Assembly: GCA_030550585.1 (NCBI GenBank)
Contig: JAUQPB010000002.1
Location: forward strand, 32,001-96,000
Direction: 5' to 3'
Length of the DNA: 64,000 nt
From: Thermoproteota archaeon
GTDB taxonomy: Archaea; Thermoproteota; Thermoprotei_A; Sulfolobales; Ignisphaeraceae
A program made the translations under genes and the position numbers. This document shows, piece after piece, positions 24,117 through 49,788 of this stretch (position 1 is its first letter; every line of letters starts with the position of its first letter). Below the pieces are notes generated by a model. That model was not told where the DNA came from, did no database searches, and saw only the letters and a program-made list of their open reading frames with translations.

Positions 24117-24193
24117 GCCGCCGTAGCTCAGCTCGGTAGAGCGCCGGCCTTGTAAGCCGGTGGTCGCGGGTTCAAATCCCGCCGGCGGCTCCA
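24117..24193 (+). tRNA. tRNA-Thr(UGU), encoded CCA; integration target (att core 24147-24193)
   Basis: GCCGCCG acceptor stem, CTTGTAA anticodon loop, GGTTCAAATCC T-loop. Confidence 0.96.
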
Positions 24194-24236
24194 GCAATTG
24201 AATGAACTCAACTCCTTCTAAAACACTTCTGAAATC

Positions 24237-24267
24237 ATATTGCATGTGATGGATATCGACCATGCAA
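24237..24267. promoter_or_regulatory. Left-end conserved motif ATATTGCATG-N6-ATATCG-N2-CATGCAA (candidate integrase arm/accessory site)
   Basis: Same blocks and spacing as 44355-44385; contains inverted TTGCATG/CATGCAA. Confidence 0.6.
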
Positions 24268-24387
24268 TTGCCGGAGGCATCTATAAGAGTCAATGACTTT
24301 TACACATCCTTTAAATAGAAAGAAACCTGCACCAGTATAACTACTACTAGAACGGTAGGTTTCTAGAAACCTGGTTCTTGAAAACTT

Positions 24388-24606
24388 CTAGAGCATATAG
24401 TTCTAGAAGCTACAGAACTAGGCTATGGAACATGCTGGATTGGTGCATTTGATGAAGCTGAAGTCAAGAAGATTCTGAATATACCGGATAGATACAGAGT
24501 TGTAGCATTAATAACAATAGGTATAGCTTCAGAATCACCATCACCAAGACCTCGAAAACCGCTGAAAGAGATAGTATCTCTAAACATCTTTGGCAACCCA
24601 TGGTGA
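24388..24606 (+). pseudogene. Nitroreductase, C-terminal fragment only
   Basis: LEHIVLEATELGYGTCWIGAFDEAEVKKILNIP...LITIG...RPRKPLKEIV; in-frame TGA at 24379 and no start. Confidence 0.85.
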
Positions 24607-24985
24607 TTACTCAATAAATATTGCACCAGATGATAGCGATATCTAAAGCATTTATGCTACACCTAACTCTAATCTAGCATAACGATATAGCTAAGCGTCT
24701 TTGGATAGAGATTGATGTACAGTATCCATGCTGTATAGAGTGTAATTGATTATCCAGAATCTCCTATCGAGATCCAGTAAACCAGGGTTCTAGAACTAAG
24801 TGTCTCAAGCTCTATTTGAAGTAGATCTATTGACTAGATACACCACCATCATTATCATAGGGATAGAGATACACCATTGTATCTCTATAGCGATAGATTT
24901 TTTAGCCTAGATCTATCGAGATAGACTTGGTGTAGAGTTTTGTCGAATTTTTGAGAAGCCTAAGCTCTATGTCTATGCACCACCT

Positions 24986-25795
24986 ATGATATCTCTCTTT
25001 TCAGCTATACTCTATGGTTTAGCTGCTCTTACCAACTATTTTACTGGTGAAGATCAGTACCTCTGGGAAAGTATCGTATATACGCTCTATTCTCTAGGTT
25101 TTCTAGGACTCTATGTGCTACTCTCAATTATTGCTGCATTAGAGCCTCGTCTAGAGGTCTACATGGTTGGTTTAGGTCTTGTAGCATCTATCTATGCTAT
25201 CTATCCAGCAATTGTCTTAATGGTTTTTGGCGGTATCGTGATATATGCTATAATGTTTTTCTATCTAATGGTATCTGTCACATATCACCCAAAGGTCTAT
25301 GGATACAGTAGGTTCTGGGGTATACCGAAGATTCTTCCAATCATAGTTGGTGCTCCAGTAGCTACTCGTGAGCTAGCTACAATAGTTTGGGAGATATATA
25401 ATCTACATAAGGTTCCTAACATGGAGCCACTAACAACACTAACTCTAGCGATATTGGTTCCAGTACTAATCATGTGTCTAGGAGATATACCTCCCTATAG
25501 AAGGATGGTGAAAATTCTACAGCTACTCGCTATAGCTATAGCAACTATAGCTTACCTATGGCTACTTCGCATAGAGATAGCAGGGTTCCGGATACCCCAT
25601 ATAGTGCTTCAGAAACTAGAAGAATACAGAGCTATAGATATGTTTGAGAAAGGGTTTAGAGCTATAGGGATGCTAGGTCTTTTAGCTTCAGTAGCAACAT
25701 TTGTAGAAGTATTGAAGCATAGCGCAGATGTAAAGAGCTATAAAAAGAAGAGACAAAGAGCTATAGAATCGGTAGAAGAAGTAGAGCTGGTGTAG
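24986..25795 (+). CDS. Multi-pass membrane protein of unknown function
   Basis: 269 aa with many hydrophobic segments and a charged C-tail; ends 19 nt before the CRISPR array. Confidence 0.65.
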   Translation: MISLFSAILYGLAALTNYFTGEDQYLWESIVYTLYSLGFLGLYVLLSIIAALEPRLEVYMVGLGLVASIYAIYPAIVLMVFGGIVIYAIMFFYLMVSVTYHPKVYGYSRFWGIPKILPIIVGAPVATRELATIVWEIYNLHKVPNMEPLTTLTLAILVPVLIMCLGDIPPYRRMVKILQLLAIAIATIAYLWLLRIEIAGFRIPHIVLQKLEEYRAIDMFEKGFRAIGMLGLLASVATFVEVLKHSADVKSYKKKRQRAIESVEEVELV

Positions 25796-25814
25796 CAAGA
25801 TAGAGCCACTAGAG

Positions 25815-28800
25815 CTTTCTACTCCCTTTCGGGAGTTTCTAGGTCTGTACCTAGCGCTCGGTCTCGCGTTTGGAGCATTCGACTTTCTACTCCCTTTTGG
25901 GAGTTTCTGTAAGTTCGAAATGTTTCCAGCATCAGACAAAGTGACTGTGACTTTCTACTCCCTTTTGGGAGTTTCATACTTGCTGTAGCTAAGTGCGTAG
26001 ATGTAGACAAGCTCATGACAACTTTCTACTCCCTTTTGGGAGTTTCTAGTTTACGCGTACTTAGATGCACCTGTGCAAATAAAAATCGAGACCTTTCTAC
26101 TCCCTTTTGGGAGTTTCATCTATTAAAAAACTAAAAGAGAGAATCAGACAAGAACATACCTTTCTACTCCCTTTTGGGAGTTTCCTAGCGTTAGGGTAGT
26201 CAAGGTGGTGGTGCCTCAAGTTGTTAAGCCCACTTTCTACTCCCTTTTGGGAGTTTCGCCAACGAGTTGCCAGAGGTAATCGAAGATATTTACGCCTACT
26301 GGAGGCTTTCTACTCCCTTTTGGGAGTTTCATGCATCTAATGCTGAACTCAATAGAAATAGTGCAAGAGATTTAACTATACTTTCTACTCCCTTTTGGGA
26401 GTTTCTCTGATATATGACACTCTAAGTGCAATAATTCAAGCATTTATACGCCTTTCTACTCCCTTTTGGGAGTTTCTGATGATATTGCTGTTGTTCTTGG
26501 TACATCGCTACTTGGATTGAAGCTTTCTACTCCCTTTTGGGAGTTTCCCGGACGGGGGCCCATGGCGAAGATATATATGTTTTGACCGAATCAGCATATC
26601 TATTCTTTCTACTCCCTTTTGGGAGTTTCACAATTAACAATCCCGATTTTAGTGTCTATATGCTTAGAAACAAAAACTTTCTACTCCCTTTTGGGAGTTT
26701 CATAGAGCTCTACATTGCTTCTCAATATCAGCAGAGTACTCTGTCCTTTCTACTCCCTTTTGGGAGTTTCCCAGACAAATATCATGTTATACTACGAGAT
26801 GTTGTTAATAAATTAACTTTCTACTCCCTTTTGGGAGTTTCGCTGAAATTGTGCATCCATTAGATACAGTTGAAACATTATTAACCTTTCTACTCCCTTT
26901 TGGGAGTTTCATTCAGTACAGAGGGTGGGGAGAAGGATGGAGTTGCGTGAATTCACTTTCTACTCCCTTTTGGGAGTTTCATTGTTCATACACCTCCCCC
27001 CACCCATAAACATCACCACACTATACTCCTTTCTACTCCCTTTTGGGAGTTTCCGAGTATCTTCTTGAATATGCTCAACAAGAAATCGAACGGTTCTTTC
27101 TACTCCCTTTTGGGAGTTTCCAATCCTTCACGAGCGTTCTTCAGTATATCCGTCTTTAATTCCCACTTTCTACTCCCTTTTGGGAGTTTCAAAACGGTAT
27201 GTTGTAGTACATAGCAACATCACCTACCACCCTATTCTTTCTACTCCCTTTTGGGAGTTTCGCTATTACATGCACATATACATCACAGACAATATCAGGT
27301 TATTCAGCTTTCTACTCCCTTTTGGGAGTTTCCAATAGAAAACTATTGATGATTGAATTATATTGCAGAGATACTGGTCTTTCTACTCCCTTTTGGGAGT
27401 TTCGCAGAGCGGGGTTTTTATATGTTTTTTGAATTGAATGTATATACACTTTCTACTCCCTTTTGGGAGTTTCAGTGCTGACTTTATAGCGATAACAAAA
27501 GACACTATATATGTGCAGCTTTCTACTCCCTTTTGGGAGTTTCTTATATGTAGAGACAGTATCGTTGCAGTCAATTCAGATTCAGTCTTTCTACTCCCTT
27601 TTGGGAGTTTCGAAGCCAAAGAAAACATAGAGGAAAACATACTGGTTATGAAGATAACTTTCTACTCCCTTTTGGGAGTTTCCCATCAATTGATGAATGG
27701 TATGAGTGGATGGTTGATGTATTATCAGCTTTCTACTCCCTTTTGGGAGTTTCAGCTCAACCCTATTGATGTTGAGAAATTCCTCTCTAGACTTAGACTT
27801 TCTACTCCCTTTTGGGAGTTTCGAGACATATCTAAAGCTGAAGAAAATATACATTGATCCGCCAAAGAACCTTTCTACTCCCTTTTGGGAGTTTCGAGTT
27901 TCAGAAATCGAAAGAGATCAATGTTGGTCGACCATCAAGTCCATTCGTCTTTCTACTCCCTTTTGGGAGTTTCAAAAGAACGTTGATAAAATCGATTTTT
28001 TGAGGGATTATCTCAAACATCTTTCTACTCCCTTTTGGGAGTTTCGTAACACAGACCATAAAGTCGAGACATCTAATCACCACTCTAACGGATATCTTTC
28101 TACTCCCTTTTGGGAGTTTCTATCTGTGGATGTGCTAAAGATCTACGGTGAGCTTGGTAGATACTCTTTCTACTCCCTTTTGGGAGTTTCAGATAGAATA
28201 GACTATATAACATTCTTATTAGCAGAGAAGATACAGAATCTCTTTCTACTCCCTTTTGGGAGTTTCCTAATGCTTTCTTTACCTCAACAAGAACCTCGAG
28301 TATGATATCTTTCTACTCCCTTTTGGGAGTTTCTTGATCCACCGGTCTATGTGTTGAGATACGAAAGATCCTGCTCCTTTCTACTCCCTTTTGGGAGTTT
28401 CTGTGTATTATGTTCATTATGATAGTAAGAGCGGTAAGTTGCTTTCTACTCCCTTTTGGGAGTTTCGTTGTATATGAGTTGTTCATAGTATATCCTTTTT
28501 CTGCATAGATCGCTTTCTACTCCCTTTTGGGAGTTTCTTATACAGATCCACTAGATTGATTTCTTTTGCTTTCTTTTCTCTCTTTCTACTCCCTTTTGGG
28601 AGTTTCCTATGTGTTTCAGAATCTTCTGATGCATAGAAATATAAATAGTACTCCTTTCTACTCCCTTTTGGGAGTTTCTTTGCTAGCTCTTATTCAACGA
28701 TAGAGAGATTAGCTAAGGATATAGTCTTTCTACTCCCTTTTGGGAGTTTCATCTGAAACTGAATTTGTAAATGTTGTTGAAAAATTAAAAAACGAAATCT

Positions 28801-29036
28801 TTCTACTCCCTTTTGGGAGTTTCGGAGAATAGTCCTCAAGCTTTGGGGTCTTGATAGTAAGCACGAGAAAACCTTTCTACTCCCTTTTGGGAGTTTCTAG
28901 AGAATGGAAGCTTGTTGCACTTAAAAATGAAAATGAGTTCGTTGACTTTCTACTCCCTTTTGGGAGTTTCATAGAGGGGAGAGGCTGGAGCCGGCAAGAA
29001 GAGTCAGGAGTCTTTCTACTCCCTTTTGGGAGTTTC
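25815..29036 (-). CRISPR. CRISPR array, 46 repeats / 45 spacers (manual count), no leader and no cas genes in window
   Basis: 25-bp repeat CTTTCTACTCCCTTTTGGGAGTTTC (minus strand GAAACTCCCAAAAGGGAGTAGAAAG, ending in GAAAG); spacers ~40-57 nt; only the leftmost repeat is variant, marking the trailer. Confidence 0.97.
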
Positions 29037-29445
29037 TGGTATAGCTACCTCAGGTCTAGTGTTAGCGTCATTCATAGCATGTAGGCTTAAGAAACCTCTA
29101 TCTTATGTTAGGATAGACAGAAAGATCCACGGTACACAGTCTATTGTTGAAGGTGTTGTAGAATCAAAAAACTGTTTAATAGTAGATGATGTAGCAACTA
29201 CTGGAGGATCTATAGAACATGCATATAACGCCATAAAGGAGGTTAGGGGTATGCCAACAGCAGCATTAGTGGTTGTAGATAGAGAACAAGGAGCAAGAAA
29301 GAAGATAGAGTCACTCGGTATGAAATTCTATAGCTATATTAATGTATCAAACATCTTCAAGTATCTTTATGAAAAAGGATTAATCGATACAAGAACCTAT
29401 GACGAAGTTATTAACTATATTAAGCGTTTTAGTCAAGATCTATAG
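29037..29445 (+). pseudogene. pyrE: Second pyrE, 5'-truncated and fused to the CRISPR repeat
   Basis: [11 protein letters not shown]...[16 protein letters not shown] aligns with 9866-10468 from about residue 64; first ~60 codons missing. Confidence 0.9.
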
Positions 29446-29524
29446 ACAGTGCCCAAAGAGTTCATCATTGTAGACAGAAATGTTTTATAGTTTACAGATA
29501 GTAGCATTAGATTTGGGCATAAAG

Positions 29525-30454
29525 ATGATCACATCATTTAAAAATAGAGATGTGGTATCAATACTGGACTTCACTAGGGAAGAACTCGAGACATTGTTTG
29601 AGTATGCAGATAAATTCCGCAAAGTTGAGGGAAAACTGAATCTACTAAACGGAAAGGTGGTTTCTCTCGCTTTTTTTGAACCATCTACTCGTACAAGGCT
29701 CAGTTTTGAAGTAGCAGCAAAACGTCTAGGTGCAGATGTTGTATCAATCATAGGTGAGGAAGCCTCCAGTATAGCTAAAGGCGAAAACTTGGCAGACACA
29801 ATACGTATGCTTGATGCATATTCCAATATTATAATTCTAAGACATAGATATGAAGGAGCAGCAAAATATGCTGCAGAAATAGCCGAAAACCCTGTTATCA
29901 ATGCTGGCGATGGTATTCAACATCATCCAACACAAGCTATGATCGATCTATATACAGTAAAGACACTCTTCGGATCAATCGATGGATTAGTGTATGTTGT
30001 TTTAGGGGATCTTAGATATGGAAGAGCAGCAATGTCATTCATATATGGTCTTTCTCTATATAAGCCCAAGAAGTTGTATGTAGTTGCTCCTCAACTATTA
30101 CGTATACGTAACGAAGTTCTACAAATACTGAAAGAAAGAGGTCTACCTATCGAAGAGAAAAATGATGTGAGAGAAATAATCAGTGAAGCAGATGTTCTAT
30201 ATGTTACACGTATCCAGAGAGAAAGGTTTCCAGATCCTATGGAGTACGAAAAAGTTAGAGGTTCGTATATTGTTACACTAGATCTTCTAGAGAAAGGTAA
30301 GTCTACATTAAAAGTTCTACACCCTCTACCAAAAGTAGATGAAATAGACCATAAAGTTGATACATCAAGATATGCAGCCTACTATCTTCAAGCTAGATTA
30401 GGTGTACCAGTAAGAATGTCTTTATTATCCCTAGTTTCTGGTGTAGAGATATGA
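29525..30454 (+). CDS. pyrB: Aspartate carbamoyltransferase catalytic subunit (second copy)
   Basis: [20 protein letters not shown]; collinear with copy 1. Confidence 0.96.
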
Positions 30455-30933
30455 GTTCAGAAAACATACACACGTTGGTGGTTCCAAAAATACTGAATGG
30501 AACTGTCATCGATCATATACCAGCAGGTAGAGCTCTAGACATACTAAAGGTATTGAATATAACTGGAGGAGAAGGCTGGAGAATAGCGGTACTATTGAAT
30601 GTTGAGAGCAAGAAGTTAGGTAGAAAAGATATAATAAAAATAGAGCGTAGAAAATTAACTTCAGCAGAAGTAAACGTCATAGCACTCATAGCTCCTACAG
30701 CAACTATAAACATTATCGAAAATTTTGTTGTAGTCGAGAAGTTTAAGGTAAATGTGCCAGAGGTTATAGAGGGTGTAATTAGATGTCCGAATCCTACATG
30801 TATATCGAATAAAGAACGAGAACCAGTAAAGTCTAGGTTTAGAACATTATCAAAGGATCAGCTTATATTTCGTTGCGAATATTGTTCAACCATTGTAACT
30901 AGAGATGATATACTAAAGCTTATCATAAGATGA
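30451..30933 (+). CDS. pyrI: Aspartate carbamoyltransferase regulatory subunit (second copy)
   Basis: [21 protein letters not shown]. Confidence 0.95.
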
Positions 30934-31716
30934 ATGTTATGTCTATTAAACCTGCCAAAATATTAAGAATAGATAGAATAGCTGAAAATACGTATCTCTT
31001 AGCTGTAGAATTATTTACGCATATGGACAATATTTCTCCGTTCAATTTTTATGGTTTGGGTACCTCGCGTAGATGAAATACCCTTAAGTATAGCATTTTT
31101 GGATAACAACATTATATATTTTCTATTCAAAGTTAAAGGTCTAGGTACAGAAACACTCTCTAAAATGTGTAAAGGTGAGATAGTAGGTTTAAAGGGGCCT
31201 CTAGGTAGAGGTTTTATCGTTGAAGACTATACGAAAAGTGTACTAGTGATAGCTGGAGGTATAGGTATAGCTCCCATCCCTTTCTTCATATATAGGTCAA
31301 AATACAAGAAGCTCGATGTTGTATGGGGAGTTAAACGAAGAGAAGAACTTTTTGATTTAAATATATTTAATCAAGATATTGGAGATAGGTATAGATTATT
31401 TATGGCAACAGAAGACTGTAGCTATGGTTTTTGTGGAACAGCTTTAGAGAGGCTAAAGAATATTCCACTAGAAGATTATGACATCATATTAGCAGTAGGA
31501 CCACAACCTATGTTGAAAGGTGTATGCGAATACATAAGAAACACTAACCTAGAAGCATATGTAGCTCTTGAAACAATGGTTAAATGCGGTATAGGTCTAT
31601 GTGGTAGTTGCTTCATTAGATCATCAAACAAGCTTCTCTGTATAGATGGACCAGTATTTAGATGTGATGAGGTGATACAGCATCTTGGAAAGACTAATAA
31701 TAGCAAAAACATATGA
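30930..31716 (+). pseudogene. pyrK: pyrK second copy with a frameshift in the T-run at 31046-31050
   Basis: ATG 30930 frame gives [11 protein letters not shown]...SPFNF; the continuation [13 protein letters not shown] is in another frame (31051); copy 1 reads [14 protein letters not shown]. Confidence 0.8.
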
Positions 31717-32956
31717 AGATGGTTATTTGAAAGAGATAATGGTGTTAGTTAATAAAGGTATTGTTGAAAGAAGATTTAACTATATCGACAAGAATCTATG
31801 TAGAGATTATGAATGTATAGATCTTCGTGCTAAAGGCATACTTCTCCCAGGGTTCATAGATATCCACGTACATTTACGTGGACTTAAACTTAGTTATAAA
31901 GAAGATGAAGAAAGCGGTACGAAGGCTGCTTCTAGAGGTGGTTTTACAGCTGTTGTAGATATGCCTAACACTTTACCACGAATAGATAACAAACAAGCTC
32001 TTCAAGAAAAAATAGAAGCACTTAAGCTAAAGAGTAGAGTTGATTTTGGAATCTATGTATCTCCAGCAAAAGACTATAGGGAAATGTATGACATGTTGTA
32101 TGAAGAAGGTGTTGTAGGTGTAAAATTCTTTCCTCAAGATCTTCACCTATTCCCCAAGATCCTCAATATTACTAGTTCCAGAGATCTAAATAGAATAGTG
32201 ATTGTTCATGCAGAACATCCATATATGGTGAATGATTGTGAAGCTGGTTCTAGATGGATGTGTAGACCTATTGAAAGCGAGCTTTCAGCTCTAGATATTG
32301 TTCACATGCATGTTAAAGAAAATATGAAGATCCATATCACACATATAACAAATGTTCTAACACTATCTTTAGCAAAAAGATATAAATTCACTACAGATAC
32401 TTGTCCACACTATCTCTACTTAGATTCTTCTCACGAGAAGGAAATGGGCTGTATAGCTAAAGTAAATCCTCCTCTTAGAACTCCTTCAACAAGATACTCA
32501 TTATTGAAACTACTGAAAGCATTTGATGCAGTTTCCTCTGATCATGCGCCTCACAGTTTCGATGAAAAACTTCTTGATTTCTCGATGTGTCCATCAGGTA
32601 TAGCTTCTCTAGAATTGACTGCTTCCTTAATCCTAAACTTAGTAAATTTAGGTGCTATAGATCTAGATGACGCTGTAAAGCTCTTATCTCGAGGTCCCTC
32701 CAAAATACTTGGACTCAAGAGATGGGGATGTACGTATATTGGTTGTATAGCTAGTTATACTGTAGTGGATATGAATAAAGAATTTCGTGTTGATCCTGAA
32801 ACATTTTATTCGAAATCTAGATTTTCGCCCTACAAAAAGAATGTATTAAAGGGTGTAGCTACAGCAACTATAGTCAGAGGCGGTATTGTTTATATCGATG
32901 AAGGATATGAAGAGAAAATCGAACCTGAACCTTTAACAAAGTTTATGGTGAATTAA
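31685..32956 (+). CDS. pyrC: Dihydroorotase (second copy)
   Basis: PGFIDIHVHLR, DMPNT, KVNPPLR, SDHAPH. Confidence 0.95.
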   Translation: MERLIIAKTYEDGYLKEIMVLVNKGIVERRFNYIDKNLCRDYECIDLRAKGILLPGFIDIHVHLRGLKLSYKEDEESGTKAASRGGFTAVVDMPNTLPRIDNKQALQEKIEALKLKSRVDFGIYVSPAKDYREMYDMLYEEGVVGVKFFPQDLHLFPKILNITSSRDLNRIVIVHAEHPYMVNDCEAGSRWMCRPIESELSALDIVHMHVKENMKIHITHITNVLTLSLAKRYKFTTDTCPHYLYLDSSHEKEMGCIAKVNPPLRTPSTRYSLLKLLKAFDAVSSDHAPHSFDEKLLDFSMCPSGIASLELTASLILNLVNLGAIDLDDAVKLLSRGPSKILGLKRWGCTYIGCIASYTVVDMNKEFRVDPETFYSKSRFSPYKKNVLKGVATATIVRGGIVYIDEGYEEKIEPEPLTKFMVN

Positions 32957-32958
32957 TT

Positions 32959-34702: not shown

Positions 34703-34887
34703 ATAACGTTATATTAATGATGTAGCGACACAATACTTTTAATTGCTAAATACTAGCTAAAGATGTTTCACAATATATAGTGTTGTTTCAAAATCCTATA
34801 GAATTACTTCTATTGAGGCAATTTTAATTTATTTACCAGCTATAGACATATTTACCGATACAAGGATAAATAGTTTGGGATAACGAT

Positions 34888-37392
34888 ATGGAGTCTAAAA
34901 AACGTATAGCCATATATGTGGTAGTGATAATTGTTTTGGCTAGCATTACTATATATAGCTATTATTATCTAGTGAGAGAAAAAGATAAAGAGATAACTCC
35001 AAAGACATTACCAACAGAATCCATATCTCTAGTCACAGAAACAATACTTGTGGAGATTTCAACACCTACAACGAATACCATCAAAGAAGAGGAAGATATC
35101 ACAAAAACTACATTAACTACACCTACAACTTTTCCACAAGAAACGATAACCACAGTTATTAACCATACTACTAGTCAACCACCTTTATATCACCTATCGA
35201 CAGAAACCTTTCCACAGGAAAAGGGTTTAGCTATGAATATAATCTATTATCCCAAAACAGTTATTTCGTGTTACGAGAAAATCGAAGTAATGTTCAATAT
35301 ATCGAACCTAATGTACAGAAATCCATACAACTCAAGCGACATAGATGTTGTAGGATACATCTATACACCAAATAACGAGGTTATCAAAATTCCAGCGTTC
35401 TACACAAGGAACTACACGATTCAAAGTATGGGATCGAGGGAACATATAGTTTTATTCAATACGCCACCTCTCTGGGCATTACGTTTTACACCAAAAGTCT
35501 CTGGAGAATATAGGGTAGTTATAGAGGCTAGAAACAGTAGTGGGGTAAAAATTTCGAGTGAAGAGCTGAAGATACAGGTTTCTGAATGTAGAAACAAAAG
35601 AGGATTCATATCAATTGATGAATCAAAGAAATTCTTGGTGTTTGAAGACGGATCTTCAGAAATAATGCTAGGCATAAACTTAGCTTGGCCTCCAAACAAA
35701 CTTGAGGCTATATCCTTCTATAGCTCATGGTTCAAAAGACTTAAAGAACTAGGTGTTAAGGTTGTACGCATAGGTCTTGTTCCATGGTCTCTAAATCTAG
35801 AATGGAGTAATTTGAATCGCTATAGTTTAGCAGATGCAGCAAGAATAGATGAAATCATCAGATTGGCAGAAGAACATGATATCTACATAATATTTGTGTT
35901 TATGTGGCATAACGAACTTGCAGATGATTGGGGAAACAATCCATATAATGCTTTAAGAGGAGGGCCTATAAAGAATCCTGAAGAATTTTGGAGTAATCCC
36001 ATAGCCATAGATATATTCAAGAATAAGGTGAGGTACATAATCGCTAGATGGGGTTATTCGCCACATATACTTGCATGGGAATTAGTCAATGAAGCTGATC
36101 TAACATCAAACTTCTTTAGCATTAGAGATGCTTTTGTTAATTGGGTTAAAGAGATAAGTAGTTATGTAAAGTTACTTGATCCCTATAAACGACCTGTAAC
36201 TGTAAATCTTGCAGACTATAACTCAGAACCAAGAGTATGGAACATAGAGAGTATAGATTTGATAACAGTCCATAGATATGGACCCACAGGGTTTAAGGAT
36301 ATAGGATCCTCAATACCAAGTATAATAGATTCTCTATGGAATACCTATAGAAAGCCTGTAGTGATAACAGAGTTTGGTGTAGATTATAGATGGATAGGGA
36401 TGCAGGGATTTACCGGAATTCCGTATTGGGCTATAGATAGAGAAGGTATAGGTCTTCATGAAGGATTATGGAGTTCCACTTTATCAGGATCTCCTATATC
36501 GGCCATGAGCTGGTGGTGGGATACACAAATAGAGAGATACAACCTGTTCTATCACTTTAAAGCTTTATCTGAATTCCTAAAAGGTGTTGACCCAGTAAAA
36601 GGAAGACTAAGTAGATTAAATGTATATGTAGAATCAGCTTCAACTATCGAAGGCAATACAACTTCCTTAATACTTTATCCAAGTGCTGGATGGATCTGGG
36701 TTTCACCAGTAAAACAGAACATCTACACTATACACCCTAACGGAAAGATAGAGGGTGATACATCGCTACTTAGTGGCTTTGTGTACGGTAAAGGACATAA
36801 CCAGCGGACTCTGAATCCCATATTCATAGTTACGTTTCTCGATAGAGGTAGAATGATCTTGAATGTAAATTCTGTAGGAAGAGGATCAGCAGTAGTATCG
36901 ATATATGTCAATAACACAAAGATAGAGGAGAAAGTGTTACCCGATATAGATGGTAAAAGTGATGAAGATGCTAATGAGTATAATATCGACATTACAATAG
37001 ATTTTGAACCTGGCACATATGAGATTAGAATAGATAATGAAGGTACAGATTGGTATACATGGAACTACATAGTATTCGAAAACACTATATACGCTTCAGC
37101 AAAGGTGCAGGCAATAGGTTTAGGTAATAAGAGTTTTGCAATAATGTGGATAAGGAATACAGACTTTAACTGGTGGAATTATGCAGTATTAAACAAATCA
37201 CCTATACCTCTAAAGAATGTAGTGATTTCAGTAGAAGGTTTAGAAGATGGTATGTATGTAGTTGAGTTTTGGGATACATTTAGAGGAGAAGTAGTAGAAA
37301 GTAAAGAGGTAATGGTTACTCAAGGAAAAGCACGCATATCAATAGATAGTTTAGAGAAGGATCTAGCTTTAAAGATGTATAAAACAGAGTAA
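34888..37392 (+). CDS. Membrane-anchored clan GH-A (GH5-like) glycoside hydrolase
   Basis: N-terminal TM and Thr-rich linker; RYIIARWGYS..ILAWELVNE (acid/base), HRY, VVITEFG (nucleophile), WWW. Confidence 0.82.
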   Translation: MESKKRIAIYVVVIIVLASITIYSYYYLVREKDKEITPKTLPTESISLVTETILVEISTPTTNTIKEEEDITKTTLTTPTTFPQETITTVINHTTSQPPLYHLSTETFPQEKGLAMNIIYYPKTVISCYEKIEVMFNISNLMYRNPYNSSDIDVVGYIYTPNNEVIKIPAFYTRNYTIQSMGSREHIVLFNTPPLWALRFTPKVSGEYRVVIEARNSSGVKISSEELKIQVSECRNKRGFISIDESKKFLVFEDGSSEIMLGINLAWPPNKLEAISFYSSWFKRLKELGVKVVRIGLVPWSLNLEWSNLNRYSLADAARIDEIIRLAEEHDIYIIFVFMWHNELADDWGNNPYNALRGGPIKNPEEFWSNPIAIDIFKNKVRYIIARWGYSPHILAWELVNEADLTSNFFSIRDAFVNWVKEISSYVKLLDPYKRPVTVNLADYNSEPRVWNIESIDLITVHRYGPTGFKDIGSSIPSIIDSLWNTYRKPVVITEFGVDYRWIGMQGFTGIPYWAIDREGIGLHEGLWSSTLSGSPISAMSWWWDTQIERYNLFYHFKALSEFLKGVDPVKGRLSRLNVYVESASTIEGNTTSLILYPSAGWIWVSPVKQNIYTIHPNGKIEGDTSLLSGFVYGKGHNQRTLNPIFIVTFLDRGRMILNVNSVGRGSAVVSIYVNNTKIEEKVLPDIDGKSDEDANEYNIDITIDFEPGTYEIRIDNEGTDWYTWNYIVFENTIYASAKVQAIGLGNKSFAIMWIRNTDFNWWNYAVLNKSPIPLKNVVISVEGLEDGMYVVEFWDTFRGEVVESKEVMVTQGKARISIDSLEKDLALKMYKTE

Positions 37393-37674
37393 ATATAGAA
37401 TACAAAGCAGATACCAATGTTTCAACACTTTTATTATCTATTTTGTTTGTATTCACAATATCTCTACATAATATTACAATATTGAACTCTATAGATGGTC
37501 GGATACCAATAGATATATTTAATAAGGCTCTCTACATGTATAGTTTATGTTACATTTATCAAAATCATTAATTAGGTGATTTATAGAATATGAATAGGGT
37601 GTATCTATTTCCTAACTTCTGTGAAGAACAATCATAACCTCGGAGAACCCGAGATTGTTGAAAAACGCTGAGAG

Positions 37675-38322
37675 TTAAGCAGAGCGTTTCTTGTACATGT
37701 AGGAGTAGTTTGTTAAGTCTATAACCTTAGATGTATCCGTTTTGTATCGGTGTTCTTGTCTTAATGTTATAATTACATGTAAACCCATCTTGCTTAAATT
37801 CTCGAGAATTTCAGGGAATATGTATTCTGATGCATATTCGTCAAGATAGTTAAGAGGATCATCTATTATGGTTATAGGGGCTTTTACTAGTAAAGTGGTA
37901 ACCAACATTACTCTTCTCCTTTGCCCCATTGAGAGTTCTCTTAATCTAGCTTTTTGAGCATGGGTAAGACTGACTATCTCCAGCGCTTTTTCAGCCTCGC
38001 TTCTTTCCACGGGTTTCATGTACATGTATGGAACCAGCCTTAAGTAGTCAATAACCCTCAACTCTAGGGGCAAATCCACGTCCTCGGGAACGTAGTATAT
38101 GTCTTTCCTATGTTTTGTTATGTCAACTCCGTTAAAGGTGATCTTACCTCGTAAAGGAGGTAGAAGAGTTGCAAGCGTTCTTGCAAGTGTGGTTTTACCA
38201 ACACCGTTGGGACCAACAAAGATCAGAATATCATTCGCGTTAACGCTAAAGTTTAATACCCCAATAACCGGAATCTTACCATATCCGCATACTAGATCAG
38301 TTGCTTGTAACATGTTCATCAC
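37675..38322 (-). CDS. ABC transporter ATP-binding protein
   Basis: GPNGVGKTT, LSMGQRRR, IIDDP. Confidence 0.9.
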   Translation of the reverse strand: MMNMLQATDLVCGYGKIPVIGVLNFSVNANDILIFVGPNGVGKTTLARTLATLLPPLRGKITFNGVDITKHRKDIYYVPEDVDLPLELRVIDYLRLVPYMYMKPVERSEAEKALEIVSLTHAQKARLRELSMGQRRRVMLVTTLLVKAPITIIDDPLNYLDEYASEYIFPEILENLSKMGLHVIITLRQEHRYKTDTSKVIDLTNYSYMYKKRSA

Positions 38323-38788
38323 CCATCAATCCCAATATACCACTTAAATCGAATACAATGTTGATTGACTGAAGTAGAAGAGGTATAAGAGCAAGGAAGT
38401 ATTCTGGATAGTACTTCAACACTATTAACCCAATCATGGACGGAACTAGAGGCCCTGAAACTGTTGCTAAATACAATCTCTCCAGGGGTACATAATCTAG
38501 GGGCTCTAATCGTATCATATGGTTGCTGAGCATAACAGATACATCGATGTCTAGTATCGCGAAATGAACAAGCTCGTGTAGGAGCGTTCCTGCAATAAAC
38601 AATGCTATTATGGCAATTGACGATAATATAAAGCTTAACCCTAAGTCAAGTGATGCCCATGTCATCATAATAGAGCCTATTGTGCAAGTCAATGCAAGGA
38701 GAATAGTTGGCTTACTTACGAGTAGGTGTTTTAGAATTAAGCTTACAAATAGACTGTATTTTCTTTTCTTTACAACTGCTTTAGCCAT
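38297..38788 (-). CDS. Small membrane zinc metalloprotease (HExxH, M50/zincin-like)
   Basis: LLHELVH after TM helices, SGP motif, N...D near the C-terminus. Confidence 0.65.
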   Translation of the reverse strand: MAKAVVKKRKYSLFVSLILKHLLVSKPTILLALTCTIGSIMMTWASLDLGLSFILSSIAIIALFIAGTLLHELVHFAILDIDVSVMLSNHMIRLEPLDYVPLERLYLATVSGPLVPSMIGLIVLKYYPEYFLALIPLLLQSINIVFDLSGILGLMGDEHVTSN

Positions 38789-40167
38789 GGAATCACCTTG
38801 TATCTTATAAAATATCCAACCTTAACAGGCAAATCGTAAAATAAAATAGAGATGATGAACACCGATATGGTGTATGCAACAGCCATCGTGGTAAGATAAT
38901 TTTGTACTATTTTTTGTACTATTATCCGCCCCATGAGCGTGCCCACGATAAGGTAAAACATAAAACACTTAATAATCTCAAAGTCTTTTTCAACTCTATT
39001 AAGCGTGAACATTCCTGCTAGCAATCCTGTAGTTAAAATGAGTATGGGAACACCTTCTAGCTCGATTAAGCCAAAAACGTGGAGAACGCTGTATATGACT
39101 AATGCATATAACCAACCAAATGAGAAAACAGAAATAACGTTCAATACCCTTGTAGAAAACCTTGTATTCGTAAGGAATTTAACGTAATGCATGTATGAAT
39201 CAATGTACCTATCCACGACATTTAACAATGGAGGAACTACGAACATAGCTAGACTCCCGAAAAGACTGCCGAGCATCAATGCAAGTAGTGTTTCCTCGTC
39301 AAAACCTAAATCACGAACATTGGTTGTTACACCTCCTACGCTTATAGATAGTATTACCTTCTCCCCAAGTGCGAGCTTCCCGAGAGCTATGAGTAGAAAT
39401 AGAAACGCAGTAGTTGCGAGTATGTATGGACTGAATGATGCGTATCCAAGGCTTCTTAACACTTCAACTTTTGGAATTTTACTCATGAAAAGGTCGGTTA
39501 GTATCTTAATCAGTACTGGTGAAATCGAGTAAGCGATCAACACCAAAAGTAAACTCAAAGGTATCGAGATTACCATGCTAATGCCCAGTATTATTATCGA
39601 TAATAGTGATGACACGGTTGCTGTAATCCTTATGTTATGCCAGGACGCTATCAAGAATCCAAGGAGAAGTATGTATGTTGTGAAGAATATGTACATATTC
39701 AATGGGAGCTTCAGAACATGGATGTTTAACACGAACAGAAGTGAAAGAGGAAGAATCAACAACATGTAGTTGAACACGGAAAATAGAAGACTAACATCTT
39801 GTACCTTAGCGATGGGGTGCTGGTACAACTTAAGCTTTTTAAAAGAATTAAACCTGTTGATATATAGAAATCCTACTAACAGGAAGAGGAATATGCTGAA
39901 CGTGATGTAACCACTAATTATTCTCAATCTATGGGTAATGTCTAATTCTGTCAGGATGTCTAAGTACTTAGTGAGCTCTTTTCGTATATATAGCTCGTTA
40001 GCAATGAAGGAAAATATGATACTTAGCGGAAATAAGTAATCTTGTATTACGAGTAAAAAGTAACATCTAAAAAGGAAAAATATTGGGAGAAAAATATAAA
40101 AAATCTTCTTACATTTATTCATATTCGACATTACCTGCACTTGCAATTTAGAGTAACGAAGAGCCAT
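38770..40167 (-). CDS. Polytopic membrane protein (probable ABC permease)
   Basis: Roughly a dozen hydrophobic segments; overlapping neighbours in an operon with the ATPase. Confidence 0.6.
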   Translation of the reverse strand: MALRYSKLQVQVMSNMNKCKKIFYIFLPIFFLFRCYFLLVIQDYLFPLSIIFSFIANELYIRKELTKYLDILTELDITHRLRIISGYITFSIFLFLLVGFLYINRFNSFKKLKLYQHPIAKVQDVSLLFSVFNYMLLILPLSLLFVLNIHVLKLPLNMYIFFTTYILLLGFLIASWHNIRITATVSSLLSIIILGISMVISIPLSLLLVLIAYSISPVLIKILTDLFMSKIPKVEVLRSLGYASFSPYILATTAFLFLLIALGKLALGEKVILSISVGGVTTNVRDLGFDEETLLALMLGSLFGSLAMFVVPPLLNVVDRYIDSYMHYVKFLTNTRFSTRVLNVISVFSFGWLYALVIYSVLHVFGLIELEGVPILILTTGLLAGMFTLNRVEKDFEIIKCFMFYLIVGTLMGRIIVQKIVQNYLTTMAVAYTISVFIISILFYDLPVKVGYFIRYKVIPWLKQL

Positions 40168-40583
40168 GAAATAGAAACACTACACTCTTCGACGTCACCT
40201 TTGCATGTAAGTAAAGGACAGGCTAAACCACAAGTTGCTAGATACACAGCGATGAACACTGCAGCTAGTATCACAATGGTGATTAATACTCCGTAGAGAA
40301 ACAACCTAGTTTTATAGCTTTTACTCGATTGCTTCTTGTGTATTGAGTAAGTAGTTAGAAGCGCTGAAAGTGTGGATAGTGGTATTATAGTGTGGGGGTT
40401 TCCGTGGTAGGAAACAACACAACTGTTGTTCTCGCAATAACTCCCGCTTATATTTATCAGGGGGATTCCCAGCCCGATGATTGATAATAAGACTGACGCA
40501 AGGAAGACTACTTGAGCTATTAAAACTGTTAACATCAAAGTTGTTGCCACGTAATACAGTCCCAGTATTACATGCCTTTTCAT
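40131..40583 (-). CDS. Small Cys-rich membrane protein, first gene of the 4-gene operon
   Basis: Three hydrophobic segments, Cys clusters (CENNSC, CGLACPLLTC..C); GGTGAG-like RBS upstream. Confidence 0.55.
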   Translation of the reverse strand: MKRHVILGLYYVATTLMLTVLIAQVVFLASVLLSIIGLGIPLINISGSYCENNSCVVSYHGNPHTIIPLSTLSALLTTYSIHKKQSSKSYKTRLFLYGVLITIVILAAVFIAVYLATCGLACPLLTCKGDVEECSVSISWLFVTLNCKCR

Positions 40584-40669
40584 AACCTGCTCTCACCTAC
40601 TGTTAAAATCTCATGTATGAAATAGTTAAAAAATCTTTATGAACGTAGAGTGATCATGAATGTGTATGT

Positions 40670-41080
40670 TCAACTACATATGCTTAAAATTCGTCTCTTT
40701 TCGCAACTTGTGGTCTACCATAAGGTTGTAGAACTTTCTCCGAAAGCCTTCAGGCTGTCTTTAGCGGTCTTGAGCTTCTCTCTGCTCGTTGATTTTGCTT
40801 TCTCCAGGGTACTGCTTGAGAACTCTGGCTAGGTGCTTGGGGACGCTCTTAGGATTTTTGCTGTTTTGCGGTAGGCTTTCTCCTGCTTCCTTAGCTTCAC
40901 AATGTATTTCTCCTTCTTTCTCAAGGAGTAGAATAACGTTTTCGGACACTTTTACTATCTGATTACTGTCTTACTGTTACTTATCACGTTATTTTACTAT
41001 TTATTGCTATTGCTCCTGTTGATTTATCCATCCTCTGCAACTCTATTCTGCTACTCTGCGAACAGAAAAACCATCCATGT
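40670..41080 (-). pseudogene. Degenerate tyrosine-integrase remnant
   Basis: Broken frames give FSVRRVAE (cf. SGxRxxE) and PEGFRRKFYNLM (cf. PKxLRKxFYNxM of SSV-type integrases). Confidence 0.4.
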
Positions 41081-41161
41081 AAAACACTCTCCTCACATAA
41101 AACCCTGTATCCTGTGTTTTGCATGATTGGTAACATGTCTTCATCATGAATCAGCTAGTTT

Positions 41162-41590
41162 ATGTCTAGACGATTAATCCATGGAATCCTCGGTTTACCC
41201 AACTCGCCTAAGTTCCTTAAGCTGTATCAATTTCACTTTCAATTCTTTCCATTATATTCAACGAAAACAATATCAAATAAAGTTACTATATTACTAGCTA
41301 TATTTAAATTTAATGGGAAATGGTATGCAATTACATCAAGTTTTACAGCTGGAACCATACTATGGGAGATAGAGGATCCTACATCAACGGTTTTTACCTA
41401 TGTTAAAACAATATTCGAGAAAGGTCGTGAAAATCCCTGCATATATCCTGTTACTACATCTAATGGCGAAATAAGGTTCATGATGTCATTGGCCACAGAT
41501 ACAGAATTTGGTAGTCGTCATAAAATCTATGTATTTGACACACACTTCAACCTTTTGGAGGAATACGACATCATTACATATAGAGTTTAG
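41162..41590 (+). CDS. Hypothetical protein or gene fragment
   Basis: 142-aa ORF, beta-rich; coding-like sequence continues past the stop. Confidence 0.35.
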   Translation: MSRRLIHGILGLPNSPKFLKLYQFHFQFFPLYSTKTISNKVTILLAIFKFNGKWYAITSSFTAGTILWEIEDPTSTVFTYVKTIFEKGRENPCIYPVTTSNGEIRFMMSLATDTEFGSRHKIYVFDTHFNLLEEYDIITYRV

Positions 41591-41819
41591 TCAGCAGGAC
41601 AATCATTTTACCTAGATCCATGGTACATCTACATAAATCAAGATCAATCTCCCACAAGAACTTTTCAAAACTCAGGTATATGGCCTGGAGCATATATAGA
41701 GATATATAGACTTAAGACAAACTATAGATACTACATTGAGGAGAAATAGAATCCTACAGATCAGTCTCAGCGATATAATTGATACTTTAGTAAAATATAG
41801 TTGAATGTAGTTCTATTGC

Positions 41820-41980
41820 TGGAGCCGCCGGCGGGATTTGAACCCGCGACCACCGGCTTACAAGGCTTGTTCATATATATGTTGATTTGCATGAGCGATA
41901 TTTGTTGCATGCAATATCTAGTTGCAGATGTATTTGTTTTATGTCAAAGATTCTCTGATAAGCTTTTCGATGTATCTGGG
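41820..41980 (-). repeat. Inverted 161-bp copy of the integrase 3' end plus tRNA-Thr att core (att core 41820-41866)
   Basis: Reverse complement of 44292-44452 with 1 mismatch; its core is identical to the tRNA. Confidence 0.93.
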
Positions 41981-42069
41981 CTGTTTTCTTCTTGATGTTT
42001 TTAGGAAATGTTTATAAGCGTTGTTTCTATTAATGTTTATTAAGGTAATTCATGTCTGAAAAGTTGCTG

Positions 42070-42350
42070 AGACCCTACTCGTTTCGGGTAGACCTTTGAA
42101 GAGCACTAGCTTCTACTGGAGGAAGAAGATAGCGGATTACCAGTCCACTTTGAACAAGTACGAGTTAAAGACCTCTAGGAGGCTTAGGAGAATGTACAAA
42201 AAATGGAGAAAACAGATCAGGAACTACGTAAACTGGGTTGTGAGGAGCGCTATGGAGTGGTTGTACTGGAGAAGAGTATCAAGAGTGGTAGTTGGCCATC
42301 CAAAGTACATAGCTCAAAACAGCAGTAAAAGCTCCAAGATCACCAGATGA
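42070..42350 (+). pseudogene. tnpB: TnpB (IS200/IS605/IS607 family) internal fragment
   Basis: LVSGRPLKSTSFYWRKKIADYQSTLNK...SRRLRRMY...VSRVVVGHPK, a typical archaeal TnpB segment; RuvC termini absent. Confidence 0.8.
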
Positions 42351-42402
42351 GAACCATAACACTTATTAACTCGCTAAGTATGTAGGATACCGAGGTGGGA
42401 AC

Positions 42403-42729
42403 ATGGAGGAGGTATCCAATAACTCATCAAATATTGATGAAGTCGAGGAGATTATTAGAGACGCTACTGGAGCATTCTATAGATTTTTGGACTATATCAT
42501 GAATCCTGAAAACTATTCTATAGATAGTATAGAGTACAAGTTTAGTGATGTAATCGAAAAGGCGAGAGCCGTTGCGAGTAAGTTAAGAAGTAGAGGCAGA
42601 GATGATGAAGCTTCTCGTATATCAGCAGTAATCGAAGCACTTAAATATCTACGCAGTATGGCTCGCTCAGTAGCTAGCAAACATCAAACTACTTATTCAG
42701 ATCGAGAGAGACAGAAAGTGTCTATATAA
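42403..42729 (+). CDS. Hypothetical helical protein
   Basis: 108-aa ORF with GAGGTGG RBS. Confidence 0.6.
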   Translation: MEEVSNNSSNIDEVEEIIRDATGAFYRFLDYIMNPENYSIDSIEYKFSDVIEKARAVASKLRSRGRDDEASRISAVIEALKYLRSMARSVASKHQTTYSDRERQKVSI

Positions 42730-42876
42730 TTTCTATTATAAATTTTTTTCAAGATACTGTGGTCGAGAACATCTGTAGCTCTTCCTCAGTTGGTAGCACA
42801 TGTAGTGTTAGCCTTTTCCTCCCCCGGTTTTCAATATGCCTGCCCCAGTAGGGGCGTTCACGAGGAAATCTGCTTC

Positions 42877-43064
42877 AGCACTCTATAGATCCTGGTAAAG
42901 AGACGTTGCCAAAGGTTCTCGCGAGGATCATTAAAGAAAGATACGGAAAAGATATCGATGAAGAAAAACTGGTAGAGATCTTAAGAGGACTCGAGCTAGC
43001 AAAGATCATATACATTGATAGAAGATACTATAAAGCTAGACTCGATAAATCGCTGATGACATGA
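42877..43064 (+). pseudogene. 3' remnant of a gene that abuts the integrase start
   Basis: Open frame ...DPGKETLPKVLARIIKERYGKDIDEEKLVEILRGLELAKIIYIDRRYYKARLDKSLMT*, winged-helix-like, no clear start. Confidence 0.45.
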
Positions 43065-44333
43065 GTGTGTGGTTTGTGGTTCAAGGATCTCGATCTATCT
43101 AAGATCTCTGATGATGCTCGCTACAAGTTGTTCGAATACATTGTGAACGTTAAGAAGCTCAAATCATCTGATCTCTCTATCTCGTATTCGACGTTTAGCA
43201 GGGTTAGGAATAGAAAGATACCTGTATCAGATTCACTACTCATAAAGATACTTCAGCACATAACACCCGAAGAATTTGCAAAGCTGGTGTCGGCTGGAGA
43301 GAGGCTTAGAGCTCTAGGTATAGTTAAAGAGGATGGATCTATAGACTACTCACTAGCGCTAGAATTTGTAAAGCTCATACTAAGAGACGAGTACCTGAAA
43401 AACCTAGTGCTGAGGTTCGTTGTCCAAGAGTTTAAAGAAGATATTAGGAAAATGCTTGGAGTGAGTTTCGCAGGCATAAAGCTTGAGTGGAGTGAAGACT
43501 TCGAGAACTTTCTATCAGAGAGAAAGAAGCGTAGAAAGGTAAGAGACCCAGAGACCATAAACTACTACAGAAACCTATTCAAGAAACACCTAGAGGGGAA
43601 AGAACTATCAGAAGAACTAGTAGAATACGTAGCTAACCACAGAAACGGGTGGCTTAGGAACGTATTCAGACACTATATACAGTACCTATACCACAGGAGA
43701 AGAATTCCCCCAGAAACATTTGGCTGGATAATGGAGGTAGTCCCCTCAAGAGGGTACAAACTAGATGTAAGACCCTACCAAATCTCCATAGAAGATGTTA
43801 GAAAGACCCTAGAGTTCTTGAAGGAGAACCACAAACTGTACTACACAGTATACAGAACAATGCTAGAATCAGGAGCAAGATTCGAACACATACTGGAGAT
43901 GATAAGGACATGGAACCCTAATGAAGTAGTGGTCATAGAGTCCATAGATCTGGAGACGGAGAGGTTAGTGTGCTTCGAGGATAGGGGGTTCTGCAGATAC
44001 TACCTAGGGCTGAGAGGTCACCAGAAACCGTGTGAATGGATATACATGTCTAGAGGTACTATAGAGCTCTTGAAAACACTAGCACCCAAAGATATTGATA
44101 GGAATAGTGTTAGAAGGTATGCCAAGAGGCATAACCTAACCCTACCGAAGATGTTTAGGAAAGTCTCATGGAGGATAATGGTTCAGACCATGCCTAAGGA
44201 GGTAGCGAGGTTTATCCAGAGCAGATTCGGAGAACTAAAGACAAGCGAAGCGAGGTACGAAGACCTACTAACAGAAGCAGACAAACACTACCCCAGATAC
44301 ATCGAAAAGCTTATCAGAGAATCTTTGACATAA
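43065..44333 (+). CDS. int: Tyrosine recombinase/integrase (SSV1-like catalytic domain, N-terminal HTH-like extension), intact
   Basis: ESGARFEH (R), PKMFRK (KxxR), FIQSR, EARY (catalytic Y); ends 72 bp before the att repeat. Confidence 0.9.
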   Translation: MCGLWFKDLDLSKISDDARYKLFEYIVNVKKLKSSDLSISYSTFSRVRNRKIPVSDSLLIKILQHITPEEFAKLVSAGERLRALGIVKEDGSIDYSLALEFVKLILRDEYLKNLVLRFVVQEFKEDIRKMLGVSFAGIKLEWSEDFENFLSERKKRRKVRDPETINYYRNLFKKHLEGKELSEELVEYVANHRNGWLRNVFRHYIQYLYHRRRIPPETFGWIMEVVPSRGYKLDVRPYQISIEDVRKTLEFLKENHKLYYTVYRTMLESGARFEHILEMIRTWNPNEVVVIESIDLETERLVCFEDRGFCRYYLGLRGHQKPCEWIYMSRGTIELLKTLAPKDIDRNSVRRYAKRHNLTLPKMFRKVSWRIMVQTMPKEVARFIQSRFGELKTSEARYEDLLTEADKHYPRYIEKLIRESLT

Positions 44334-44354
44334 AACAAATACATCTGCAACTAG

Positions 44355-44385
44355 ATATTGCATGCAACAAATATCGCTCATGCAA
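44355..44385. promoter_or_regulatory. Right-end copy of the conserved 31-bp motif
   Basis: ATATTGCATG-CAACAA-ATATCG-CT-CATGCAA, matching 24237-24267. Confidence 0.6.
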
Positions 44386-44405
44386 ATCAACATATATATG
44401 AACAA

Positions 44406-44452
44406 GCCTTGTAAGCCGGTGGCCGCGGGTTCAAATCCCGCCGGCGGCTCCA
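44406..44452 (+). repeat. attR: 3' half of tRNA-Thr(UGU)
   Basis: GCCTTGTAAGCCGGTGGCCGCGGGTTCAAATCCCGCCGGCGGCTCCA, 46/47 identical to 24147-24193. Confidence 0.93.
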
Positions 44453-44579
44453 AATAATTGGCTTCATCTCTATAAAGTAATTTACCATACTTATTTAATG
44501 TTGTTTACAAAATTGAGAAATTTCGGTTGAAGCTCCAGCCACAATAGACGATGGTGGTACACGAATTTGTTGAGTATGA

Positions 44580-46648: not shown

Positions 46649-46657
46649 AGTCTCACC

Positions 46658-49762: not shown

Positions 49763-49788
49763 GATAAGCATTTAAATCAAGGTTGTTG

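Follow-up and report, generated by a model that had tools for sequence, protein, structure and literature searches.

A probable composite island of congeneric chromosomal DNA within a small integrative element at a tRNA-Thr gene of a hot-spring archaeon

INTRODUCTION

Elements that integrate at tRNA genes have been proposed to capture flanking DNA; in the portion of the literature cited here, this idea was put forward for the tycheposons of Prochlorococcus (bioRxiv 10.1101/2020.12.28.424599). In archaea, the cited sections of the SSV literature assign SSV-type integrases to fuselloviruses and to two small Sulfolobus/Saccharolobus plasmids of 6970 and 5740 bp, and describe pXZ1 and SSVA as targeting two tRNA genes that differ by a few bases (PMC8371274). 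For the Thermococcales, the corresponding sections report rearrangements between integrated elements that are driven by integrase or by homology (PMC5495485; PMC8371274).

Here we describe an island in a 64,000-nucleotide stretch of an archaeal genome (the window, to which all positions refer). The host genome is a metagenome-assembled genome, and its source is hot springs. We compared the island with other genomes (G numbers) and with sequencing runs (X numbers). Our main reading, to which we give roughly four chances in five, is that the island in the host tRNA-Thr(TGT) is real and composite, made of two joined donor fragments within a small integrative element.

RESULTS

The island spans 20.2 kb, is bounded by a 47-nt att repeat and contains an intact SSV-family integrase. 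The host tRNA-Thr(TGT) gene lies at 24117..24193 (plus strand; tRNA model, 76 bits), and its last 47 nt, the 3' half, form att1 (attL, 24147-24193, plus strand). Comparison of att repeats placed att3, the attR at the host site, at 44406..44452 (plus strand). Att1 and att3 are direct repeats with 1 mismatch over 47 nt, one of them completes the tRNA, and the integrase gene lies between them, the arrangement of a tRNA-targeting integrative element. The outline given in the initial annotation, about 20 kb between direct att repeats with an intact integrase, was therefore correct. Following att1 is the left arm of the element (arm a, or P' arm; 24194..24386, plus strand). The same sequence follows tRNA-Thr(CGT) in G005, and relatives of it (75-83%) follow tRNA-Gly in G011 and G002, with one more in G010 where no tRNA was called. 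The att arms were resolved at the single-base level, and the putative att site of the element is the 47-nt 3' half of tRNA-Thr(TGT) or tRNA-Thr(CGT).

To the left of the island, the rpl-L10-SIS-tRNA order is kept in G004, G005, G007, G008, G014 and G015. Past att3 the flank is merely 65-71% identical to G004 and G005; from 48118 on, it is 90-94% identical to G007. An empty site was seen only in another species, G008, which has tRNA-Thr(TGT), 290 nt and then the homologue of window 48224-49705. Among congeners, gene order is interrupted at tRNA-Thr 3' ends.

The element backbone (42372..44405) holds a 108-aa ORF (42403-42729), a 52-aa ORF (42906-43064), the integrase gene (43065-44333) and the right (P) arm, all on the plus strand. 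The 422-aa integrase matches PF16795 (E 3e-24; 86 bits, cut-off 27), which identifies it as an SSV-family tyrosine recombinase. Its catalytic domain could be aligned to the structures of two SSV-type integrase chains, 4DKS and 3VCF, with the R, KxxR, R and Y retained, and its identity to SSV integrases is 23-33%. In class I "suicidal" SSV-type integrases, att lies within the ORF and the gene is split on integration; here the ORF is whole and att3 starts 72 nt past its stop. No tRNA relic was found upstream of the integrase. We conclude that the backbone is, by all appearances, a small, non-autonomous integrative element whose integrase gene would stay unsplit upon integration. Scans of the island ORFs against Pfam, PHROGs and NCBIfam gave family matches only for the integrase, an ABC ATPase and an IS605 OrfB fragment. 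The claim that viral, plasmid-replication and conjugation genes are missing held up in these scans, and with no capsid, replication or transfer gene among the scanned ORFs the island does not classify as a virus, a plasmid or a conjugative element.

Left of the backbone is an IS200/IS605-type remnant (41981..42371, plus strand) with a TnpB (OrfB) fragment (42096-42350; PF01385, E 8e-11). The stretch 41978-42041 is multi-copy in G002, and an identical junction with the 114-nt arm described below was found in G011. A contig of run X4, a run in which the host flank has depth 0, spans 42313-43102. We considered a 2.1-kb att-bounded relative in G002 as an active minimal element and rejected it, its integrase being decayed. 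A paralogous integrase element at tRNA-Arg (contig C4) carries no near-identical foreign block. Searches with the host-tRNA-to-joint pattern, the predicted attP and the joint between CRISPR and pyrE gave 0 matches in metagenome and viral contig collections, from which the samples may be absent, and no circular form was found.

The cargo consists of two blocks. Donor block 1 (24387..29036, plus strand) begins with the tail of a nitroreductase gene (24387-24605, plus strand). As the initial annotation had it, this gene is headless. The last 73 of its 172 codons are retained; G005 and G004 have the full-length native gene, as does an 11-kb contig from run X4. A membrane ORF follows (24986-25795), and 24387-25839 is 99.6% identical to contig C9 of G005. 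Repeat comparison bore out the CRISPR array reported for the cargo (25815-29036, 46 repeats, sense on the minus strand) and revealed it to be leaderless. The leader is conserved at the resident arrays (91%) and in G004; in the island, pyrE DNA replaces it. The island lacks cas genes, and Cas1 had no match anywhere in the genome of the recipient. Without leader and cas genes, the island array is not a functional CRISPR locus. Island and resident spacers gave only 19-20-nt chance matches to the host genome and the compared loci.

Donor block 2 (29037..41819, plus strand) combines part of a pyr operon with a glycosidase-like gene, an ABC cluster and DNA from the 3' side of a tRNA-Thr(CGT). It starts inside pyrE (29037-29445, plus strand), and pyrB, pyrI, pyrK, pyrC and pyrD follow on the same strand (profile matches). 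These genes share the order of the resident pyrFEBIKCD operon (9204-14897), and identity between the two copies is 50-71% at the protein level and about 65-69% at the DNA level, in agreement with the headless pyrE, resident gene order and clear divergence described initially. The reading frame of pyrK is broken, but in the window copy alone. With 7 synonymous, 6 non-synonymous and 3 intergenic changes, substitutions unique to the window are too few for an assessment of selection. After pyrD come a 286-aa ORF and an 834-aa glycosidase-like ORF. A trailing hypothetical had been thought common to both operons; the two proteins proved non-homologous (19% identity, E 0.03). The matches behind the GH5-like label of the larger ORF, to clan GH-A-type families, are all sub-threshold. 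The glycoside hydrolase first proposed as selected cargo is only a candidate for that role; the host already has a 57% identical paralogue. The block continues with an ABC ATPase and three ORFs on the minus strand and ends, at 41819, with a 142-aa ORF in the 3' flank of the donor tRNA-Thr(CGT). The housekeeping-type DNA is indeed donor chromosome, but it extends to 41819 and not to ~37600. Contigs of run X4 cover 29037-37679 and 37650-41830.

Where did the cargo come from? Over 8.8 kb the cargo shows 99.5% identity to G005, and its identity to G004 is 97.7%; for the orthologues of the host itself the figure is about 65%. This pyr operon is the sole pyr operon of G005 and G004, and in a PyrB+C+D tree the island copy grouped with these two genomes (support 100/100) and the resident copy with G014. 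Block 2 has a GC content of 0.357 and is donor-like rather than host-like in composition: its tetranucleotide usage correlates at 0.969 with donor loci versus 0.867 with the host, closer to the donor than any of ~300 random host chunks. Donor-type contigs of runs X3, X4 and X8, in which host-flank depth is 0-6, hold the native upstream parts of pyrE and nitroreductase. The proposal of a congeneric donor is thus borne out. We conclude that the cargo is ordinary chromosomal DNA, ~17.6 kb in all, of another species in the host's genus, and that its two blocks, which are not neighbours in the donor, are joined end to end in the island.

Perhaps the assembler created the island? A chimera would need two co-occurring congeners with the element, between which assembly crossed from host to donor-type DNA and back at repeats that they share: about 240 nt of att plus left arm, and 161 nt of right arm plus att. 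The genome is derived from a metagenome, and donor-type organisms are common in the related samples X3, X4 and X8. Run X1 contigs break precisely within the shared att/left-arm stretch, ending at 24142 and resuming at 24364, and no listed contig connects the host flank with block 1 by way of att1 and the left arm. In X1, island contigs also have only 60-90% of the flank depth. However, X1 depth climbs with GC, from 128 (GC 0.36) through 135-156 (0.38), 155 (0.39) and 166-178 (0.41) to 194-212 in the flank (0.42), a trend that fits sequencing bias rather than a second organism.

Of the junctions, only those at 24386/7 and 29036/7 are peculiar to the island. Both are blunt, sharing no more than 1 nt, and the joints at 41980/1 and 42371/2 were also found outside the host, in G011 and run X4. 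An independent assembly of run X1 produced an 8735-nt contig (28947-37679) that crosses the joint between CRISPR and pyrE by 90 nt, and a further X1 contig begins 23 nt left of the 24386/7 joint. Other observations argue against misassembly as well. In X1, block 2 was found solely joined to the CRISPR repeat, on a contig unbroken over 29037 and with no fork to native pyrE. Its carrier would therefore lack pyrF and the pyrE head, unless it had a second operon, as the host does. The 389-kb contig contains whole CRISPR arrays internally, whereas arrays break contigs in G005, which suggests a long-read assembly. Finally, a chimera would require two misjoins. We consider a chimera unlikely.

A third att copy, absent from the initial annotation, bears on how a real island could have formed. 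It is inverted (att2, 41820-41866) and is followed by 114 nt identical to the spacer and 3' end of the integrase gene (together 41820..41980, minus strand). This segment forms a 161-nt inverted repeat with 44292-44452 (99% identity; 114/114 matching positions outside att). In G004, the sequence of 41295-41866 adjoins tRNA-Thr(CGT), and in run X4 the sequence beyond 41980 runs on as the reverse complement of the integrase (44262-44291). We conclude that att2 and the 114-nt arm represent the attR of an element copy at the donor tRNA-Thr(CGT). Since this inverted donor attR stands at the cargo end, the cargo adjoined an element copy in the donor.

Block 2, which ends in the attR junction, was thus probably taken from beside the element copy in the donor tRNA-Thr(CGT). 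In route (a), two donor fragments, one of them with integrase and att, would close into a circle, which the integrase would then insert into the host tRNA. In route (b), the host would already harbour an element copy, and imported donor DNA would recombine into it, with one side anchored by element homology and the other joined illegitimately. The route is inferred, and the two fit the evidence equally well. Of the transduction- or F'-like delivery first envisaged, pick-up beside a donor element is supported by the inverted attR, but recombination into a resident element would serve as well as delivery. The inverted orientation of the donor attR would require an additional rearrangement. Several inversion and excision schemes were tried, and none was uniquely supported; flipping 24194-41819 yields an intact attP and an attB-like site, yet it too is not uniquely supported.

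Could taken-up DNA have been inserted by random illegitimate recombination, landing in the element by chance, with no role for the element? The bluntness of both island-specific joints would suit such an event. However, a donor fragment that ends in the same element (attR plus right arm) and sits inside the host's copy would be an unlikely double coincidence, and we regard this explanation as highly improbable. An ancient paralogous pyr operon, or an old duplication retained in the lineage, would explain the identical gene order but can be set aside almost entirely, given that the other 16 congeneric genomes each show a single pyrD segment, that the island copy is nearly identical to G005 and G004 while the resident copy clusters with G014, and that genes are truncated at both block ends.

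DISCUSSION

The composite island preserves, all together, the site in the recipient, the species of the donor, the junction on the donor side and both of the new joints. This preservation makes a route of large interspecies transfer in archaea directly testable, and the case falls in an archaeal group without genetics. A CRISPR array would here have moved between species as passive cargo. We suggest, very tentatively, that a minimal integrase element common to hot-spring Crenarchaeota could act as a cross-species shuttle or landing pad for blocks of >10 kb, whole CRISPR memories included. If so, cells only about 65-70% identical in DNA could swap large chromosome blocks. On this reading, the blunt joint at 29036/7, which lies right at the leader edge of the repeat, the cut site of the spacer-integration enzyme, would hint that one of the donor breaks came from this enzyme; the recipient itself gave no Cas1 match.

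How does the island compare with described systems? In the portion of the preprint cited, tycheposons are likewise tyrosine-recombinase elements at tRNA genes that grow beside the tRNA and carry "flanking DNA from other hosts" (10.1101/2020.12.28.424599). Unlike the tycheposons as described there, the island has an archaeal host and an SSV-family integrase and lacks a replication module; its donor species and donor-side attR can both be seen, and its cargo is inverted and built from two non-adjacent donor blocks. With SSV-type systems, including the two small plasmids that we take to be pXZ1 and pSSVi, it shares the tRNA 3' half as att, two near-identical tRNA genes as apparent targets and an alignable R..KxxR..Y catalytic domain. 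It differs from them in the att site downstream of an unsplit gene and in the absence of virus and plasmid genes. Inverted att and element copies, and synteny breaks at tRNA-Thr 3' ends, recall the Thermococcales cases as far as the cited sections describe them; here, the outcome would be a gain of foreign DNA, beyond inversion, and a rearranging activity of the island integrase is putative. Homology-facilitated illegitimate recombination occurs in naturally transformable bacteria; we know of no archaeal case in the literature searched. The island resembles it in having one homologous anchor, the element, together with blunt illegitimate joints, but the anchor here would be a mobile element common to several species. 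By analogy, we conclude that the island is probably a new and unusually explicit archaeal variant of the flanking-DNA capture previously proposed for bacteria.

An integrase element at tRNA-Thr

The host tRNA-Thr(TGT) gene occupies 24117-24193, and its last 47 nt (att1) reappear with one mismatch at 44406-44452 (att3), as expected from the direct repeats reported in the initial annotation. A third copy, att2 (41820-41866), is inverted and lies within a 161-nt inverted repeat paired with 44292-44452. The integrase had also been called intact, and rightly: 43065-44333 encodes 422 aa with a PF16795 match, aligns with solved SSV-type integrase domains and retains R..KxxR..Y. Its stop codon precedes att3 by 72 nt; hence, integration leaves the gene unsplit. 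Relatives of this integrase are located at tRNA-Arg, -Ser, -Gly and -Thr genes, in records titled Desulfurococcaceae, Ignisphaera sp., Pyrodictium, Caldisphaera and others. Viral, replication and conjugation genes were said to be missing, and in the remainder of the interval, searches of three libraries likewise detected no families for viruses, replication or transfer; the sole mobile-element match besides the integrase was a TnpB fragment (42096-42350). The element is small and non-autonomous. Near the end of its left arm (24194-24386) is a perfect 14-nt palindrome, GGTTTCTAGAAACC (24355-24372), and the relative in the congener G005 has similar motifs.

To judge from identity, both sides of the island are of the host type: on the left, identity is 70% with G004 and G005, the donor-type congeners, and 85-86% with the relative G007; on the right, it is 65-71% with the former pair and, from 48118 on, 90-94% with G007. 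Both tRNA-Thr genes mark synteny breaks among congeners at their 3' ends, which makes these positions recurrent points of recombination. The segment that separates att3 from the flank conserved in G007 and another relative, G008 (44453-48117), holds a kinase ORF and two others of 106 and 410 aa; they are host-like in composition and absent from this locus in both relatives, and the segment may be an older addition beside the tRNA. The gene at 48118-49790 sits downstream of tRNA-Thr(TGT) in the host and G008 and behind tRNA-Thr(CGT) in G007 (L048, G007:C3), a differing placement that is a rearrangement broken at a tRNA-Thr 3' end.

The cargo comes from a congener

Does the cargo derive from a congeneric chromosome, as first proposed? 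Among 41 related genomes searched, the pyr-to-glycosidase stretch is near-identical in two congeners, G005 (99.5%) and G004 (97.7%), and 64-75% identical in the remainder. In each of the two it is the only pyr locus; pyrD segments number one apiece in 16 of 16 other genomes of the genus and two in the host. In a PyrB+C+D tree, the island copy falls beside those of G005 and G004 (support 100/100, branch 0.0008); the resident copy groups with G014. Tree and identities thus agree on the proposed origin. The composition of cargo block 2 (29037-41819) is donor-like, exceeding every one of ~300 random host chunks. In G004, the counterparts of block 1 (24387-29036) and block 2 lie on separate contigs. 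The host already has counterparts of the cargo pyr genes, nitroreductase, glycosidase-like gene and 142-aa ORF; the ABC cluster and membrane ORF do not duplicate host genes.

Two joints are specific to the island

Att1 is followed by the left arm, the start of which also lies downstream of tRNA-Thr(CGT) in G005. At 24386/24387 the arm bluntly abuts codon 100 of a 172-codon nitroreductase, and at 29036/29037 the final CRISPR repeat abuts mid-pyrE with at most 1 nt of shared sequence. Read on the minus strand, att2 comes after the final 114 nt of the element right arm and before sequence that exactly matches the 3' flank of the G004 tRNA-Thr(CGT), which identifies it as a donor-site attR. The arm/IS-remnant joint at 41980/41981 occurs in the relative G011 as well, and 42371/42372 is bridged by a contig of metagenome run X4, where host-flank depth is 0. 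Since these two joints are found elsewhere, only 24386/24387 and 29036/29037 are island-specific.

A conserved leader lies on the pyrE-joint side of the repeat in resident arrays and in the G004 array. Pyr sequence now occupies that side; the imported array is therefore leaderless, with the joint at the leader edge of the repeat. This blunt joint falls within 1 nt of the leader-side repeat edge (29012-29037), the position at which spacer integration attacks a CRISPR repeat. On the donor side, the sequences at the breaks are TATTGC|T and TATTGT|T. Neither the host genome (99.9% complete) nor that of G007, its nearest relative, gave a match to Cas1 (PF01867), and G004, G005 and G008 each have one. 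Resident in the host are four arrays that retain leaders, and C4:773157-781807 holds five RAMP genes. The imported repeat (25815-29036) differs from the resident one (arrays on C1, C3, C4 and C7) at a single loop position, with T instead of A, and might be accepted by host crRNA processing.

Public metagenomes

Each of the 22 runs listed is a hot-spring metagenome; four (X1, X3, X4 and X8) were compared with the window over a 20-kb stretch. In X3, X4 and X8, with host-flank depth of 0-6, contigs of 10.8-11.7 kb match 29037-37679 (X8: to 37615) and extend from there into the native head of pyrE, as checked against G005. Host-flank depth is high in X1 (194-212), where a single contig of 8735 nt spans 28947-37679 unforked at 29037, thereby bridging the CRISPR/pyrE joint. 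Another X1 contig starts at 24364, 23 nt left of the 24386/24387 joint. Among the pieces listed for the runs compared, none crosses 24143-24363, and the att3 side falls outside the 20-kb stretch; host-island linkage hence rests on the assembly itself. X1 island contigs have depths of 128-178, increasing with local GC, a trend that we infer to be sequencing bias.

Over ~6.9 kb drawn from the flank, block 1, 37650-41844 and pieces of the element, X1 and the window show no differences. Within block 2 (29037-37679) there are 10 differences in 8.7 kb, the X1 base being donor-like every time; later exchange with donor DNA, or another source population, is possible. A T run at 31045 has 5 residues in the window and 7 in G004, G005 and all four runs. 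The shorter run disrupts the pyrK frame, in the window only, and may be an assembly error.

Possible routes of capture

Two integrated copies would be expected to give four junctions, and the island retains three of them: attL and attR of the host, and attR of the donor. The cargo is thereby linked to a donor copy of the element. Perhaps donor fragments were circularised and then integrated, or imported donor DNA recombined into an element copy already in the host? Both routes would be compatible with the island, and each would require just the two blunt joints. Over 42372-43273, the window has 4 differences from an X3 contig, whose depth equals that of the host flank, versus 10 plus 4 gaps from an X4 contig; this closeness to X3 hints weakly at recombination into a resident copy.

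Among the papers listed in our literature search, none describes an archaeal example in which the donor species is identified and the donor attR retained, although this is no proof of absence. Rearrangements between integrated archaeal elements have been reviewed (PMC8371274), and the Prochlorococcus tycheposons are tRNA-integrating elements proposed to capture flanking DNA (bioRxiv 10.1101/2020.12.28.424599).
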